The notes under the pieces are model-generated. The model saw nothing but the letters and a program-made list of their open reading frames with translations, had not been told where the DNA came from and did no database searches. A DNA stretch of 64,000 bases from Candidatus Micrarchaeia archaeon (lineage in GTDB: Archaea; Micrarchaeota; Micrarchaeia; Micrarchaeales; CABMGC01): assembly GCA_049976305.1 (NCBI GenBank), contig JBMFIM010000001.1:1-64000 (forward strand), read 5' to 3'. Position 1 is the first letter of the stretch. Each line of letters opens with the position of its first letter. The translations under genes were made by a program, and so were the position numbers. This document shows, piece by piece, positions 7,738 through 51,402 of this stretch.

Positions 7738-8049
7738 CTAGAGGACGTCTATGTTTGATTCGTGGTAGCCAAGGGCAAGCAATATTTTCTTAGCTGCTTC
7801 TTTGTGGTCGCCCTGAAGTTCTATTACTCCATTCTTGTCTGTGCCGCCGCAGGAGAGCTTGTTCTTTAGCTCTTTTGCGACCTTCTTGAGCTCTTCGCCT
7901 GACAGCCCTTCGACAACAGTGACAAGCTTGTTGAACTTCGATTTCTTGGTATAGATCTTTATCTTTGTAGCTGTCTCACGCTCAAGAACCTCGTAGACAT
8001 TCAGCTCTTTTGGCAATCCAGTAATTGGGTCTATTTCGCTTTCTACCAT
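7738..8049 (-). CDS. translation initiation factor aIF1 (SUI1)
   Basis: LKNKLSCGGT...IELQGDH. Confidence 0.93.
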   Translation of the reverse strand: MVESEIDPITGLPKELNVYEVLERETATKIKIYTKKSKFNKLVTVVEGLSGEELKKVAKELKNKLSCGGTDKNGVIELQGDHKEAAKKILLALGYHESNIDVL

Positions 8050-18400: not shown

Positions 18401-20014
18401 TCAGCCTATTGGAATATACGCCCTTCCTACTGCCTCATGGTTTGTTGAATTTATTGAATAGCCTATGCCTACAAAAAGCCTGAGATTGAGCGCAAGACCT
18501 GTAATGACTCTGCCAAGATCGTAGCAAGGAACGCTTATGTTCATAGCTTGGCCTTTTGCCAGAGTTACGTTTAAAGGTTCGGGCTTGTAAGGCGGAAGCG
18601 AATAGCAAGACGCGTTGAGTATGCGCAATGTAGAGTTGAGATTCTTAAGTCTAAAAGAAATGTTTCCATTTAGAAAGCTTACGTTTGAGCATGAGAAGGT
18701 ATTGTTGAATGAGCAGGTGTTTGTTATTCCAGAGCTGAACGTCAAAGGCTTTCCTTCTATTCCAAAACTTCTTATTATGCCTATGTTTATCGGCACTTGT
18801 TGTAGGAGGTAAGAGGAGCTAAGCAGAGAAAATACTGAAAGGTTGTAATTGCCTATGTATGCAGTGGTCCTCATAAGAGCATTGGTTCCTACAAAGGTGC
18901 CGTTTTTAGGAAAGATGTATTGAGAGCAGTAGCTGGCATTTGAGACGTTTGTTATAAGACCATAGCAAATATTGTCTTCATAAGCCAAGGAATTTGAAGA
19001 GATGGTTGAATAGAGAAAAGACATATTGCCTAGAAGTGCAAAAGAGCCTGCTTTTTCTCCTACTGGAGTTACTAGCGAGTAATTGCCAAGGGCGATCGCG
19101 TTGGCTATTGCGGTGTTGGAATAGAAGCTTGATAACATAATTGAACTGGCATGTTTTGCAGACAGCATGCTTGTGCAGTTGCCTTGCTTGGCCAACAACA
19201 TCTTGAGCCAGCCTTGCGAATAGTAGCTGCAGAGGGTCGTATTGTTCGGAAAGTAAACTACAGTAACTTGCTTTCCAGCTACGCTTATGTTCTCAGCCTT
19301 AAGCCCATTTATAAGCGCTGCTGTGTTTGTGAGATTTGGGGACAAGAACCCCATAAGCCAAACTGCGGAAGCAGAAGTGCCATTAGCATAGGTTGCATCA
19401 GCAGCGACAAGCTGCTTAACGTCTGTGAGCACATATTGCAGGATAGAGTCTAGGAAATTGTTGAAGTAAGACACGTTGGTAAGCTTTATCCGTGCAAGGC
19501 CGTATGTTGCATTGAGATAACTTGCTAATGCATAACCACCGGCGTTTAAATGTTCGATCTCTTCTGCTATCATGTTTCCCGAAGGAAGCATTGCATAAGC
19601 ATTTGGCTTTTCTGCTGACACAACATGAAGATAGGTAACAGATTTTGCAAGTGGTCTGTCAATTATATCGTAAAGCCTTCCAGGGTCTGCAACCGCTGTT
19701 ATCTCGAAAGTAGAATTGAAGGAGGGCACATAGGTAAAATTGAGAAACACGAACTTTCCTGGGGGAAGAGTGACTTTGTATAATGTGTTGAGAGTAGAAT
19801 TGACATATACCCCAATACTCATATTTCTTATCGGTGTTCCGCCATTGTTCAAAACTTTTATCGGAATCTCTGCTAGCTGATAAGGATATAGGCTAATGTT
19901 TGTAGGCGCAGTAAGAACTATGCTCACTGCTGGCTGATAGAAAAGCCGCAAATAAAGGGCAACACCTGCTATCGCCACTATAAGCAGTATCCAAAAATAA
20001 ATCTCCCGCTTCGT
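18401..20014 (-). CDS. membrane-anchored surface protein with N-terminal CARDB/Ig-like domain
   Basis: signal anchor, many N-x-S/T sequons; proposed start ACG 20014 (track start GTG 19978). Confidence 0.7.
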   Translation of the reverse strand, partial: TKREIYFWILLIVAIAGVALYLRLFYQPAVSIVLTAPTNISLYPYQLAEIPIKVLNNGGTPIRNMSIGVYVNSTLNTLYKVTLPPGKFVFLNFTYVPSFNSTFEITAVADPGRLYDIIDRPLAKSVTYLHVVSAEKPNAYAMLPSGNMIAEEIEHLNAGGYALASYLNATYGLARIKLTNVSYFNNFLDSILQYVLTDVKQLVAADATYANGTSASAVWLMGFLSPNLTNTAALINGLKAENISVAGKQVTVVYFPNNTTLCSYYSQGWLKMLLAKQGNCTSMLSAKHASSIMLSSFYSNTAIANAIALGNYSLVTPVGEKAGSFALLGNMSFLYSTISSNSLAYEDNICYGLITNVSNASYCSQYIFPKNGTFVGTNALMRTTAYIGNYNLSVFSLLSSSYLLQQVPINIGIIRSFGIEGKPLTFSSGITNTCSFNNTFSCSNVSFLNGNISFRLKNLNSTLRILNASCYSLPPYKPEPLNVTLAKGQAMNISVPCYDLGRVITGLALNLRLFVGIGYSINSTNHEAVGRAYIPIG

Positions 20015-20525: not shown

Positions 20526-20765
20526 GTGACACCCTCCCACGACTGAAGTCGTGGGCTTCCAGAGTGGCTATAATTGGTGTCATGACGCCACCCGTGTAGT
20601 TCCTGCTTCTTCGGCAACTGCCTTCCTTGTGGAAGGTCTTACGTCGCCTCCACAGGCTTGACTTCCTCGAATGCCTGACGATCATTTATTCACTGTAAAA
20701 GTCTATATATTCTTCTGTTCGCTTTCATCCCACGATTGAAATCGTGGGCTTTCCCGCTCACTTTT
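20526..20765 (-). mobile_element. non-autonomous IS200/IS605-family element retaining a TnpB omega-RNA-like scaffold
   Basis: subterminal hairpins GCCCACGATTTCAATCGTGGG and GCCCACGACTTCAGTCGTGGG, right end GTCAC, internal AAGCCTGTGGAG...GAAGCAGGAA typical of tnpB 3' ends; no transposase/TnpB ORF. Confidence 0.85.
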
Positions 20766-20789
20766 ATAAGGGGAAGGCAGTAAGAGCAA

Positions 20790-21317
20790 CTAGTATTGGA
20801 TAAGTGAGAAAACTTCTCTACCTTTCAAATGCTCTCTACCCTTGAGATCCTTCAGCTCTACAATGAAGCCAAGACCCACAACCTCGCCACCAAGTTTCTC
20901 TATAAGTTCGCATGCGGCTTCGGAAGTGCCGCCAGTAGCTAAAAGGTCGTCTATCACTGCAACCTTTTTGCCAGGTTCCACTGCGTCTACGTGAATCTCG
21001 ATTGTTTCAGTATTATACTCAAGCTGGTAATCCTTGCTTACCGTCTTGTATGGCAGCTTGCCTTTTTTCCTTATCGGCACAAAGCCCACATTGAGCTTGC
21101 TGGCAACCGCTGCGCCGACTATAAACCCTCTTGCTTCTATTCCCGCAACATAATCCACCTGCTTCTGTGAAAAATACTTTGCAATTGCATCTACCGCTGA
21201 ACCAAAAGCAATAGGATCTTTGAGCAAGGGTGTGATGTCCCTGAAAATAATCCCGGGTTTAGGAAAGTCTTTTATGCTTCTTATCCTGGATTTTAGCAAT
21301 TCCTCAATGTCAGCCAC
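20790..21317 (-). CDS. apt: adenine phosphoribosyltransferase
   Basis: DFPKPGIIFRDITPLL, EARGF, IDDLLATGGT. Confidence 0.96.
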   Translation of the reverse strand: MADIEELLKSRIRSIKDFPKPGIIFRDITPLLKDPIAFGSAVDAIAKYFSQKQVDYVAGIEARGFIVGAAVASKLNVGFVPIRKKGKLPYKTVSKDYQLEYNTETIEIHVDAVEPGKKVAVIDDLLATGGTSEAACELIEKLGGEVVGLGFIVELKDLKGREHLKGREVFSLIQY

Positions 21318-23926: not shown

Positions 23927-26746
23927 CTAGACAACTTCTAGTTCTACATCCAAGCTAGGCTTTAGCGGCAAAGCTCTAGAAGCCCTTGCTGAATTTGATT
24001 TTGCTTCTTCCTCTATGCTGACATCGCACCCTAGCGTGCTTTGCATATACTCGGCAGCAGTGCTAAATGCCTGGTACTCTTCGCTGGCTGAAATTTCGAT
24101 TGGCTTTAGTTCCGCACCTGGTTTTGTGAACTGAGAAAGATATTTTGCAGCAGCATCTTTGTTTACATTGCTTTCAAAACCCTCTAGAGCTTTGGCAATG
24201 TTCTTTGATTCAACGTACTTGTTGTAGAGGTCTCTTTTCCACTGATTTGCAACTATTACCCTTATCCTCTTTACCTTCTTGCCTGATTTCCTTGTCATAA
24301 GGCTAGAGACTTCTTTCGCATCCTCTATAACTGAGTCTATTGCATCTTCGAGCATCTCAATTTTTTCGTTTACCAACTCTTTTCTGGCTTGAGGCCACTT
24401 TTCAAGCGATACAAAGGTGTTATTGCCAAGCTGGTGCCAAAGTTCCTCGGCAAAGTGCGGGGCTATAGGTTGAAGCATCAGCGCTATGTCAGAGAGAAAG
24501 TCCTTTACAACAATTGCGTTATTGCCGCCTCTTGCGAAGTATCGCTTTAGTTCTATTACACTGTCATAGAATATGCGCTGATAAGCTTCCCTGAACTCAA
24601 ACACATCCATCGCCTTTGTTGCTTGCTCTACCTTCTTGCTTAGCTTTGAATAAAGCCAATAGTCTATTTGCTTAAGACCGCCGCTTTGGAGCGAGTCAAG
24701 CTTTAGCGCAGTATCATACAAATACTCAAGCCTTTCCTGTATACCTCTAACTGCCTTTACAGAAAAGTCTGCATCGCTATAAAGGTCAGCACCAGCAATA
24801 AGGTTTATCCTAAGGGGATCTACGCCGTAAGTCTCAGCCCCGTCTATTAGCGGCACGATGTTTCCAAGGCTTTTGCTCATCTTTTCTCCTTCCATGAGAA
24901 GCATGCCATTGACCACTATCTGCTTTGGCCAATACTCCTTGCTAAAAACCGCAAGATGGTTGAAAATATACATGGTAAGATGGTTTGGTATCAAATCAGG
25001 TCCAGAGTGATTCGATGTTTGCCTGTACCAGTAATCGAAAGACTCCCTGCATCTTTTAATTATCTGGTAGTCTATGCCAGTATCCTTCGCAACCTGATCT
25101 ATATCGCCCTTGCCCAAGAATACATAGTCGAAGAAGGATGGCTTGAGCTTCTCGGGCTCTATCCCCCTTATTATGTGGGAGATTGTATAGAACGCTGGGT
25201 ATATCGTTGAATCAGAAAGCGATTCTATTATGTAGTTTTTGTCTAGAGGGAATCTCGTGCCAAGCCCTTGTGCACGCGCAACAGCACGCAGATTAAGCCA
25301 TTCTACAGTATTTTCAAAAGCCGGCCTTATCTTTTCCGGCACCAATGCCATATTCGGCAGATGCGCTCTCACCTGCTGCTTCCACTGCTCGTCGCCATAG
25401 TTAAGGAACCATTGATTTTCCACGACCTTTACAACAATTTCTGCACCACACCTGCAATAGACTGGCGCATTTGCAAGAATGTAAATTGGTAATGCATTCT
25501 TGTCGTTAAGAAGCTTCTCTTTTATCTTTTCCCTAGCTTCTGGCTCACGCATTCCTTCGTAGCCCTCTACAGTCATAATTCCGTATCTGGACTCCTCCTT
25601 ATACTCGAGCTTCGTTGCCTCTTCTATCTTCTCCTCGCTTGCATCGATGCCAATTCCAATCGCATCAAGATACGCCTTTGCTAATGGTTCGCCTTCCTTT
25701 TCAGCAACGCTGCCACCTGTACCTAATTTAAGAACAGGTATGGGCAAAGGAACAGGCATGCCTGCCTTTTTCAGCCTTTCCAAAGCGATATAGTCAAACG
25801 GCGCGTGGGCTGGCACGCTCATCACTATCCCTGTGCCCAGATCAGGCTTCACGAAGAAGCCGTGGTACACTGGGACCTTTACTCCATTCACTGGGTTTAT
25901 GCACTGCTTTTCTATGAGCTCCTGCCCGCTAAGCTCTTTCAACACACTTATCTTTAGCTGGAAGCCCAAAATGTAGCTTGCCTCTTTGGAGATATAGAAG
26001 CTTCTTTCGTCTTCGCCAATTTTGCAAAGCACGTACTGGCTATCTCTGTTGACAAAAATATTGGTTACACCGAATACCGTCTCAGGCCTGTAGGTAGCAC
26101 AGAGCATATATGCATCTTCTCCATCAACCTTGAACGCTATCGCCACCTCTTCCTCGATCTCCGGCTCGACATCATGCAAGGTGTCGTGCATTCCAACAGG
26201 GTTATTTTCATTAGGGCACCAGCCGACTGCATGCTTTCCTTGGACAAGAAGATGCTTGTCGTTGAGTATTCCGAACTGCCACTCTACAAACTTGCTGAAG
26301 AAGGGTTCTGTAGAAACAAACTTCCTCCTGAAGTCTATGCTTAGGCCAGACCTCACAAAGCTTGCCTCGCTGTTTTTGGTGAAGTATTCTGTTATGTAAA
26401 CAGGGTCTGTCATCTTTGCAATGTCTTCATCAGGAATATGGAAAAGTTTGAGCTCTTTTATAATTTCCTGGTCGTTGTTTTTTATGCGCTTTGCAAATGC
26501 AAGCACAGGAGTTCCGGTAGCGTGGAAGCCCATAGGGAAAAGAACGTTGTATCCTTGCATGCGCTTGTACCTTGCCAGTGCGTCAGTAATGCTGTATGTT
26601 CGCAAGTGGCCGATGTGCAAAGGTGTGTTGACATAAGGAAATGCTGCAAAAACCATATAGGCTGGCTTGTCGTTCGGCTCTACCTCAAATATCTTTGCTT
26701 CTTGCCAATTCTTTTGCCATTTTTTCTCTATGCCTGCAAAGTCCGT
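23927..26746 (-). CDS. leuS: leucine--tRNA ligase
   Basis: HIGH and KMSKS; conserved N-terminus (M)DFAGIEKKWQ extends to ACG 26746 (track start 26656). Confidence 0.95.
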   Translation of the reverse strand, partial: TDFAGIEKKWQKNWQEAKIFEVEPNDKPAYMVFAAFPYVNTPLHIGHLRTYSITDALARYKRMQGYNVLFPMGFHATGTPVLAFAKRIKNNDQEIIKELKLFHIPDEDIAKMTDPVYITEYFTKNSEASFVRSGLSIDFRRKFVSTEPFFSKFVEWQFGILNDKHLLVQGKHAVGWCPNENNPVGMHDTLHDVEPEIEEEVAIAFKVDGEDAYMLCATYRPETVFGVTNIFVNRDSQYVLCKIGEDERSFYISKEASYILGFQLKISVLKELSGQELIEKQCINPVNGVKVPVYHGFFVKPDLGTGIVMSVPAHAPFDYIALERLKKAGMPVPLPIPVLKLGTGGSVAEKEGEPLAKAYLDAIGIGIDASEEKIEEATKLEYKEESRYGIMTVEGYEGMREPEAREKIKEKLLNDKNALPIYILANAPVYCRCGAEIVVKVVENQWFLNYGDEQWKQQVRAHLPNMALVPEKIRPAFENTVEWLNLRAVARAQGLGTRFPLDKNYIIESLSDSTIYPAFYTISHIIRGIEPEKLKPSFFDYVFLGKGDIDQVAKDTGIDYQIIKRCRESFDYWYRQTSNHSGPDLIPNHLTMYIFNHLAVFSKEYWPKQIVVNGMLLMEGEKMSKSLGNIVPLIDGAETYGVDPLRINLIAGADLYSDADFSVKAVRGIQERLEYLYDTALKLDSLQSGGLKQIDYWLYSKLSKKVEQATKAMDVFEFREAYQRIFYDSVIELKRYFARGGNNAIVVKDFLSDIALMLQPIAPHFAEELWHQLGNNTFVSLEKWPQARKELVNEKIEMLEDAIDSVIEDAKEVSSLMTRKSGKKVKRIRVIVANQWKRDLYNKYVESKNIAKALEGFESNVNKDAAAKYLSQFTKPGAELKPIEISASEEYQAFSTAAEYMQSTLGCDVSIEEEAKSNSARASRALPLKPSLDVELEVV

Positions 26747-26792
26747 AAAACCACTAGAAAGAAAATGCCGTTAAAGATTAATAAAGCAAACG

Positions 26793-26866
26793 TGGAGCCA
26801 GGAAGGGGAGTCGAACCCCTCTTTGCCGCTCTGCAGGCGGCCGCATAGCCGATCTGCCATCCTGGC
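26793..26866 (-). tRNA. tRNA-Cys(GCA) with encoded CCA
   Basis: acceptor GCCAGGA/TCCTGGC, anticodon loop CTGCAGA, T-arm AGGGG-TTCGACT-CCCCT, U73. Confidence 0.95.
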
Positions 26867-50565: not shown

Positions 50566-51402
50566 CTATTCGACAAGCGCAAAAACATCTTTTCTGTTTT
50601 CGGTCACATCGCCCTGCTCAGCCAACAGGTAGAGCGTCCCTCTTATCGCTTCCTCATCCTGATGCAACAGGGTTGCAAGCTCACTCACTTTCTTGGGCCC
50701 GTTCTTTAGCTGCTTGACTAGTTCAGTTCCAAGCTTGTCAAAAAACGACTTCATGAATATGTAGTACTTTTTGTTGAACGCCCTTGTACCTATAACTTGG
50801 CCCTGCCTTATGCTTTCAGACACCGCCATTGACAAAGCGGCAGCTTCAGCCTCTGTAGGCAAAACAACATACCCTTTGCTCTCCAGCGCTTTTACATTCT
50901 CGTTTTCTATGCCGGGCTTCACTTTAAGCAACGTCGGCTCGACTTCCCCCCATGCACGAGCCTGGTCTATCTCCTCCTTCTCCTTTGGCTTTTTCCTCAA
51001 CAAGAAGGTATCGTAAACATGCTTTGAAATGCTGTAAAGCTTCTCCTTCCTCTTTTCATCGTTGTATAGCACTACTGCTTTCTTAGCGATTAGACTTGAC
51101 AAAACCTTCTTTTCGCTCTCGTTAAGCAAGCCCGCTACCCTTTGCTCGGTTCTTGAAGGATATCTAATAGTATCTAACTTTTTGAGAACGTCAAGTTCTT
51201 CTTTTGTGAATTCTCCGGGCTCTGCAGATGGCTGACTAGAGGAGAGCAGTGACACTACATCTTCCTTCTTTGCAAACAAAAATGCGTTATCGCTAAACTT
51301 GAAAAAATCAACCTCGTCGTTTTGGTTAAGGTGAAGTTGCGCGACAACATCATAGGGGATGTAGATTAAGTATTTGTTATCCTTTTTGTAGACCTTTACC
51401 GT
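50566..51402 (-). CDS. hypothetical protein with N-terminal AbrB/MazE-like segment and C-terminal wHTH
   Basis: open frame extends 41 codons above track start to ACG 51402: (M)VKVYKKDNKYLIYIPYDVVAQLHL...DEVDF. Confidence 0.7.
   Translation of the reverse strand, partial: TVKVYKKDNKYLIYIPYDVVAQLHLNQNDEVDFFKFSDNAFLFAKKEDVVSLLSSSQPSAEPGEFTKEELDVLKKLDTIRYPSRTEQRVAGLLNESEKKVLSSLIAKKAVVLYNDEKRKEKLYSISKHVYDTFLLRKKPKEKEEIDQARAWGEVEPTLLKVKPGIENENVKALESKGYVVLPTEAEAAALSMAVSESIRQGQVIGTRAFNKKYYIFMKSFFDKLGTELVKQLKNGPKKVSELATLLHQDEEAIRGTLYLLAEQGDVTENRKDVFALVE

Follow-up and report, generated by a model that had tools for sequence, protein, structure and literature searches.

The leuS locus and its ACG codon

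The stretch of DNA analyzed here comprises the first 64,000 nt of contig JBMFIM010000001.1 from a Candidatus Micrarchaeia archaeon (assembly GCA_049976305.1; hereafter, the window). Its minus strand carries leuS, the gene for an archaeal leucine--tRNA ligase (LeuRS), whose reading frame offers an ACG where the protein is expected to begin. The host is a tiny hot-spring archaeon and leuS is an essential single-copy enzyme gene; to our knowledge, ACG is not an accepted prokaryotic start codon, and it is absent from NCBI table 11. We compared the host genome (G000; 723 kb in 34 contigs, 93.7% complete) with its sister genome G004, which shares 90.6% nucleotide identity over 630,885 aligned bases, and with relatives from across the order. 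The locus contains the following features.

23927..26746, minus strand: leuS, archaeal leucine--tRNA ligase, 939 aa counted from the ACG (TIGR00395 leuS_arch, PRK12300, and alignment to solved LeuRS)
26744..26746, minus strand: proposed leuS ACG initiation codon (sequence; kept in G004)
26750..26755, minus strand: weak Shine-Dalgarno (SD) site AGTGGT, with AGTG 5 nt from the ACG (pairing with the 16S tail of relative G022)
26771..26773, minus strand: in-frame TAA closing the leuS frame upstream (sequence; same in G004)
26654..26656, minus strand: first in-frame ATG, codon 31 (MVFAAF), not a likely start (29 upstream codons under purifying selection)
26778..26785, minus strand: TATA-like box TTTATTAA (sequence and motif scan)
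26793..26866, minus strand: tRNA-Cys(GCA) gene, ending 46 nt above the leuS ACG (ARAGORN)

On the minus strand, the region reads TAA CGG CAT TTT CTT TCT AGT GGT TTT ACG GAC TTT GCA GGC ATA GAG AAA AAA TGG. The TAA (26773-26771) lies 8 codons above the ACG, the first ATG (26656) lies 30 codons below it, and no ATG, GTG, or TTG stands between the TAA and the ACG, as an earlier note on this DNA had described. The ACG is the sole codon one letter off ATG between the TAA and Asp2, and the next in-frame ATG upstream lies beyond the TAA, inside the tRNA-Cys gene (26860). The earlier note was also correct in placing GTGG 4 nt from the ACG; AGTG at 5 nt gives a better register and matches the usual SD spacing in this genome. 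The TATA-like box would yield a short leader containing this SD site, and the arrangement at 26747-26866 would fit either a short leader of leuS itself or co-transcription with tRNA-Cys.

Counted from the ACG, LeuRS scored 877.2 bits against TIGR00395 (cut-off, 648.5), its PRK12300 match began at residue 3, and residues 2-95 aligned with residues 5-101 of the solved LeuRS 1wkb/1wz2. The protein thus clears the archaeal LeuRS cut-off and carries the N-terminal KWQxxW helix, which is included in this alignment. Over the 29 codons that follow the ACG, G000 and G004 differed by 7 synonymous and 0 nonsynonymous changes; the genome-wide baseline for interior codons was 19.5% synonymous and 4.9% nonsynonymous differences. 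Judged from these comparisons, the approximately 30 codons above the first ATG are translated LeuRS sequence under purifying selection.

It could be that translation instead begins lower down, at ATA 26731 or ATG 26656, producing an enzyme without part or all of its first helix. ATG 26656 is the first canonical codon, and ATA serves as a start elsewhere in G000. We nevertheless consider a downstream start very unlikely, given the purifying selection over 29 codons and the alignment of the KWQxxW segment with solved LeuRS from residue 2. In addition, when start regions were paired with the 16S tail of G022 (G000's own 16S is unassembled), the leuS site gave −4.0 kcal/mol versus −0.9 kcal/mol for ATG 26656, which has no SD, and nothing resembling GGTG occurs within 12 nt upstream of ATA 26731. 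Orthologues argue the same way: 29 of 30 could be matched by the N-terminal motif, and all 29 begin 1-4 codons above the D/N-F/Y, with ATG immediately before the equivalent D/N-F/Y in 4 of them.

Comparison of related leuS 5′ ends, which the earlier note had proposed, placed ATG near the same position in 23 of the 30 orthologues; the others begin with TTG (2), ACG (2; G000 and G004), ATA (2), and ATT (1). The TTG, ATA, and ATT orthologues all have GGTG at 5 nt. The ATA orthologue of G010 has no canonical codon upstream, and the near-cognate orthologues of G006 and G011 are ambiguous, having an ATG 5-6 codons up. G004 retains both the ACG and the 45 nt upstream of it, which excludes a private sequencing error in G000.

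Probable non-canonical starts in the window, the genome, and the order

The same situation had been reported for two other genes in the window, and both cases are real, with GGTG 5 nt upstream of an ACG that is kept in G004.

50566..51402, minus strand: 278-aa protein starting at ACG 51402, with GGTG at 51411-51408; occurs throughout the order; probably a regulator with AbrB-like and winged-helix parts (leads only)
18401..20014, minus strand: 537-aa protein with an N-terminal hydrophobic signal or anchor, starting at ACG 20014, with GGTG at 20023-20020 (sequence; orthologues)

The start contexts read GGTG-TCCAT-ACG (51402) and GGTG-AGTAA-ACG (20014), the latter ACG directly following the TAA of the upstream gene (TAG in G004). 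Above the first canonical codon, comparison with G004 gave 12 synonymous and 0 nonsynonymous changes in 40 codons of the 51402 gene, and 3 and 2, respectively, in 11 codons of the 20014 gene. The G022 orthologue of the 20014 gene has ATG-AAG-AGA-GAG (MKREIY) at the equivalent position, and the canonical codons further down in the three window genes pair at −0.9 to −1.7 kcal/mol. The prediction that standard gene callers would truncate such genes was borne out for these two: in the public collection, 6 of 7 cluster members for the 51402 gene are 237-aa records that begin at a downstream TTG (residue 42), and all 3 members for the 20014 gene have 525 aa, beginning at a downstream GTG. It found no such backing for LeuRS, which under 6 start variants had no entry in the public protein collection and none in the Atlas.

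The 51402 gene is present in 58 of 61 genomes, and its Atlas clusters are mostly Microcaldota, in keeping with the probable placement of the host in Micrarchaeota. Its product has no Pfam or NCBIfam match; the leads are MazE_antitoxin in 11% of one cluster and winged-helix look-alikes under 0.9. At the aligned start in 25 loci, we found ACG in 8 (G000, G004, a contaminant contig of G004, G001, G002, G005, G014, and G037, the last from another family), ATA in 5, ATC in 1, ATG in 8, and TTG in 2, with 1 unresolved. GGTG precedes all 14 near-cognate codons, at 5 nt in 11 and at 6 nt in 3, compared with 1 of the 10 canonical ones. The near-cognate codon directly follows an in-frame stop in 4 loci (G005, G012, G006, and the contaminant), and 4 loci are ambiguous, with an in-frame canonical codon upstream (G001, G051, G023, and G037). 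An internal Thr codon would be expected to vary at its third base, yet ACA, ACT, and ACC occur in none of the 25 loci. In G002 and G003 the same upstream CGT GGT GTT TCA is followed by ACG in one and ATG in the other. This interchange at one aligned position, together with the 14 near-cognate loci of 25, argues against sequencing error, C-to-U editing, and an ACG-specific tRNA.

We then counted such starts among the 762 genes called in G000 with a hexamer model, combining orthology screens with the G000/G004 comparison (609 gene pairs). The first orthologue screen returned at least 27 candidates among 497 genes, most of them false (upstream-gene overlap, shadow frames, and tRNAs). In the second, 18 of 439 anchored genes were without a canonical start; 8 were kept and 10 were discarded by eye as projection artifacts. 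C13:16590 (contig:position) entered through the first screen and C1:78074 through its SD. In ten genes, the conserved sequence is not preceded by a canonical start; they are distributed as follows.

ACG (5): leuS, the 20014 gene, the 51402 gene, alaS (C4:18824), and the membrane-anchored protein C4:24284
ATA (3): C9:13467 (RNase H-like motif), C13:16590, and C1:78074
ATC (1): C9:19293 (RNase HII-like)
CTG (1): C20:9537

We take C9:13467 to be RNase H-like (rnhA) and C9:19293 to be RNase HII-like. This orthologue-anchored count, also suggested earlier, puts the share at 8 of 439 anchored genes (1.8%) or 10 of 762 called, that is, about 1-2% of genes in these archaea. ACG accounts for half of the ten, compared with 4.4% of near-cognate codons in coding DNA (P, 3e-5 to 4e-4). 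The idea that the lineage initiates at ACG is too narrow, in that usage is neither limited to ACG (ATA, ATC, and CTG serve too) nor peculiar to the species, even with ACG overrepresented in G000. Three candidates were left out: C8:11050 (ATT; ATG 3 codons down), C12:14717 (ATA; canonical codon 20 up), and C3:44034 (ACG; ATG and GTG up). L37Ae starts with ATG in G000, and a motif search for Rrp4 gave no match. As a separate observation, the 20014 protein (18401-20014, minus strand) and that of G000:C4:21978-24284 (minus strand) look unrelated and are both membrane anchored, and each gene shows TAA-ACG, a Lys codon, and a hydrophobic stretch.

Conservation of these codons is high. G004 keeps 9 of the ten identical, compared with 655 of 1,129 internal ACG codons that stay ACG. 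The exception is alaS, which has ACG in G000 and ATG both in G004 and in the only metagenome contig that matched a search pattern allowing both letters; a canonical codon stands nearby in all 23 other genomes read. The ATG of the relatives marks this position as the start. Swaps between ATG and ACG at an SD-spaced position were seen in alaS and in a small gene on a contaminant contig of G004. An error of sequencing or assembly, with T read as C, would fit alaS, which has ATG in these two close relatives. As an account of the other genes it is barely conceivable, because the ACGs of leuS, 51402, 20014, and C4:24284 all recur in the independently assembled G004 and that of 51402 in 8 loci. Runs X2-X4 come from a single sample, probably G004-like and with about 91% similarity to the window, and are thus not independent.

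Two side observations concern these data sets. Contigs C40 (L080) and C42 (L082) of G004 carry genes approximately 70-80% identical to those of G000, including a second leuS, and are contamination of G004 by a third relative; these stretches carry two further ACG starts. At 20527-20794 of the window, runs X3 and X4 skip 266 nt, with 22 other letters, an indel between G000 and its relative.

Relatives across the order use ACG, ATA, ATT, ATC, and CTG starts. In G022, GGTG at 5 nt precedes ATA, CTG, an ACG on a small gene that is presumably histone-like, and an ATA shared with C13:16590. Of 159 anchored genes neighboring the loci in other genomes, 10 are candidates for a near-cognate start backed by an SD, and an in-frame GTG makes 5 of these ambiguous. 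Kin genomes are not independent, so start-codon counts across relatives are no tests of selection. No credible AAG or AGG start was found in G000 or in the neighboring-gene loci of relatives. A small gene beside the gene for initiation factor aIF1, which we take to be uL29-like, has an apparent ATA or ATT start in five genomes (L133, L136, L137, L143, and L153), four of them ambiguous, with an in-frame GTG within the SD.

The SD context of the ten starts is distinctive. Among about 100 GGTG placements in 487 upstream regions of G000, 49 lie 5 nt before ATG. Exact GGTG at 5 nt precedes 8 of the 10 odd starts, codon choice within each start region having been partly SD guided, and leuS (AGTG) and C4:24284 (GTTG) match at 3 of 4 letters. 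For comparison, GGTG at 5 or 6 nt precedes 30 of 213 ATG starts (14%); the counts for GTG and TTG starts are 6 of 31 and 8 of 40, and among 180,712 interior codons the share is 0.65%. Hand arithmetic allowing 9 positions per gene gave a chance estimate of approximately 1e-7 for 7 of 9. In 11 of 12 relatives, the 16S tail is GAUCACCUC; the anti-SD consists of GAUAGAUCACCUC, followed by divergent sequence that, again in 11 of 12 (L192-L203), lacks the CU with which the archaeal consensus ends. This would suit GAGGUGA-type SD sites over GGAGG. Separately, full-length 16S matches in 12 genomes span approximately 1,980-2,010 nt versus approximately 1,486 nt (G003 [C9:12577-14552], G021, G011, G039, G006, G033, G010, G040, G013, G036, G034, and G032), which suggests an insertion or intron of about 500 nt.

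The leuS frame might also be entered from upstream, by read-through of TAA 26773, frameshifting, or re-initiation coupled to an upstream gene. In favor of this, the stop of an upstream gene precedes four of the ten odd starts by 0-4 nt (20014, alaS, rnhA, and C13:16590). A matching share is seen among ATG genes, 191 of 552 of which stand −30 to +15 nt from such a stop. Above leuS is a tRNA gene, and past the TAA no ATG is in frame except one within that tRNA gene; no same-strand gene lies within 3.4 kb of the 51402 gene; and re-initiation would itself need a start codon. Entry from upstream is thus highly improbable.

Editing of the mRNA from C to U, known for start codons in plant organelles, would turn ACG into AUG. 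The excess of ACG among the odd starts (5 of 10, with the P values above) is in its favor, and CTG could likewise be mended, to TTG. ATA, ATC, and ATT at equivalent aligned positions, by contrast, are not mendable in this way. Of the LeuRS columns that are invariant in at least 26 of 30 genomes, 3 are altered in G000, and C-to-U would fix none of these; over 30 genomes, C>T fixes (19) were not enriched relative to A>G (46) and G>A (37). The deaminase family PF00383, the one family searched, was not found in G000, G004, G003, or G008 and was found in G022. Neither are all of the starts mendable, then, nor does C stand in for T at these conserved LeuRS sites, and we regard editing as highly unlikely.

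Initiation machinery and a proposed mechanism

A further alternative is that a dedicated initiator tRNA with a CGU anticodon reads ACG as a lineage-specific start, which would suit the ACG excess in this genus. By the general identity rules for initiator tRNAs, the initiator-type tRNA of G000 is that at C1:76141, with a CAU anticodon, A1-U72, and GGG/CCC. The only CGU tRNA found in this 93.7% complete genome, tRNA-Thr at C5:51862, is without the three G-C anticodon-stem pairs. Such a tRNA would also leave ATA, ATC, and CTG unexplained, and the proposal is hardly credible. Among the other tRNAs, G000:C2:37828-37903 is a tRNA-Ile with a TAT anticodon in the gene, which is unusual, as archaea mostly use a modified CAU tRNA for Ile; G000 also has two tRNA-Asn(GTT) genes.

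G000 has aIF1, aIF1A, aIF2 alpha, beta, and gamma, and aIF5B, and aIF1 was found in 40 of 41 genomes; no loss of fidelity through a missing aIF1, aIF1A, or aIF2 subunit was therefore seen. The gene for aIF1 lies in the window.

7738..8049, minus strand: aIF1 (SUI1), start-codon fidelity factor (ATG start, no zinc-knuckle cysteines, loop 1 KSKFNK)

In G000, aIF2 beta, aIF2 gamma, and aIF1A start with ATG, and aIF2 alpha starts with TTG or GTG. The AUU start of infC is a bacterial example of a weak start on a factor gene. Because aIF1 starts with ATG in 30 of 30 loci, no infC-like autoregulatory loop is present here. The conserved GAGAGGTG that lies 10 nt upstream of aIF1 probably belongs to the coding end of the preceding gene, not to a control element.

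All four zinc-knuckle cysteines of aIF1 are lost in G000, G004, G003, and G001 and kept in G005, of the same genus, and in the other 25 of 30 genomes. We rejected this loss as the cause, since G005, G014, G022, and G037 keep the knuckle yet have ACG starts. According to one study, 36% of archaeal aIF1 are without the knuckle, Pyrococcus abyssi aIF1 proofreads without zinc, and loop residues R31, Y32, and K34 matter for the binding of 30S and mRNA (PMC6237735). Loop 1 reads KSKFNK here versus KRRFGK and RARYGK in two solved archaeal hits; among 30 genomes of the order, only G025 has the Gly of this loop, the other 29 being without it (L126-L155). This change in loop 1 might be linked to the tolerance of weak starts.

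Taken together, the leuS ACG is conserved and very probably a true start within a broader, SD-dependent usage of near-cognate codons. Conserved coding sequence extends above any AUG, GUG, or UUG and is bounded by an in-frame stop, and a codon one letter from AUG stands at the orthologue start in the SD context of the host, with leuS matching at 3 of 4 letters. The earlier suggestion of ACG as an initiator behind an SD motif thus draws support from conservation, selection, and SD enrichment. We think it highly likely that leuS starts by ordinary archaeal initiation, in which the SD helix would set the P-site register and Met-tRNAi would accept a one-letter mismatch. The short anti-SD of the 30S subunit (AUCACCUC) would pair with a GGUG-type site, fixing the P-site codon 5 nt downstream; Met-tRNAi (CAU), carried by aIF2, would then accept ACG despite the position-2 mismatch, and the protein would begin Met-Asp-Phe. 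ATA, ATC, ATT, and CTG could be tolerated in the same way, and the nearly always present SD at 5-nt spacing would compensate for the weak codon. The N-terminal residue of LeuRS would accordingly be Met, and expression from ACG would presumably be lower than that from ATG.

Several points weigh against this account. At −4.0 kcal/mol, the AGTG of leuS is a weak SD and ranks last among the ten, the other nine ranging from −5.4 to −11.0 kcal/mol. The partial SD guidance of codon choice somewhat inflates the SD enrichment, and one census gene (C1:78074) was found through its SD. The ACG of alaS is a singleton and could reflect either a recent change or a fault in the assembly. Where GGTG lies at 6 nt in the 51402 gene (G001 and G051), it has its own GTG in frame, which may be the start. 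In 274 kb of the approximately 700 kb of G003, no credible case was found among 195 anchored genes. With all initiation factors present, no lost factor explains the tolerance. Finally, ACG initiates at only 0.1-1% of AUG in Escherichia coli (10.1101/063800); for an essential synthetase this would be little, unless initiation in this lineage is more permissive.

Weak starts may be selected at some genes and drift at others. The gene-specific enrichment of near-cognate codons hints strongly at selection for the regulator-like 51402 gene and weakly for leuS; at alaS it offers no such hint, and the ACG there looks like drift. A wider proposal is possible but doubtful: that the order initiates productively at a set of near-cognate codons resembling that of eukaryotes (ACG, ATA, ATT, ATC, and CTG, never AAG or AGG); that the P site lies 5 nt from GGUG; that aIF1 with its altered loop 1 proofreads less; and that weak starts act as a dosage dial (14 of 25 loci for the 51402 gene, 3 to 5 of 30 for leuS) while the codon itself turns over.

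Known systems and implications

Near-cognate initiation is already known in the other two domains. In yeast, the alanyl-tRNA synthetase gene ALA1 starts at ACG and GRS1 at TTG, and all one-letter variants of ATG work except AAG and AGG (PMC2909995). The resemblance lies in an ACG start on an aminoacyl-tRNA synthetase gene and a codon spectrum without AAG and AGG; the difference is that the yeast codons are alternative starts beside AUG, reached by scanning, whereas here the ACG is the sole possible start and is placed by an SD. In the part of a bacterial study that we could consult, ACG in E. coli yields N-terminal Met and some Thr, and the rare starts annotated in 34 model genomes are ATT, ATA, ATC, and CTG, with ACG not among them (10.1101/063800). 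SD-dependent near-cognate initiation that probably lowers expression is common to both systems; unlike there, we found no autoregulatory loop, and ACG is very probably in use.

The accessible text of a 2020 review of archaea names AUG, GUG, and UUG only, with 0 occurrences of ACG (PMC7531240). Relative to standard archaeal SD-led initiation as outlined in the available text of two sources (PMC7531240 and PMC6237735), the factors, initiator tRNA, and anti-SD core are alike, and AUG, GUG, and UUG serve most genes. The system differs in having GGTG 5 nt from the codon, versus 6 nt in a P. abyssi model mRNA, an anti-SD without the final CU, and an aIF1 loop 1 without the Gly of the two solved hits. 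In ribosome profiling of Haloferax volcanii, approximately 30% of putative alternative sites were near-cognate, which suggests that archaeal ribosomes can start at such codons; those were minor sites, excluded as possible false positives, and ACG is unnamed in the main text (PMC7261190). Small open reading frames of Methanosarcina mazei include CTG starts (PMC11456600, available text), and the available text of PMC3219674, PMC11456600, and PMC8211752 holds nothing on ACG. We found no account of archaeal ACG starts in a literature search that left subscription journals mostly outside and did not cover supplements.

If about 1-2% of genes start in this way, a similar share would be misannotated in these genomes, as is the case for the 51402 and 20014 genes. 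Truncation would cost the former its probable DNA-binding N terminus and the latter its signal-peptide n-region. Near-cognate genes would also provide natural test mRNAs for the trade-off between aIF1 and the SD helix. Most broadly, an essential single-copy enzyme that can be started only at ACG would mean that archaeal start selection is looser than has been described.

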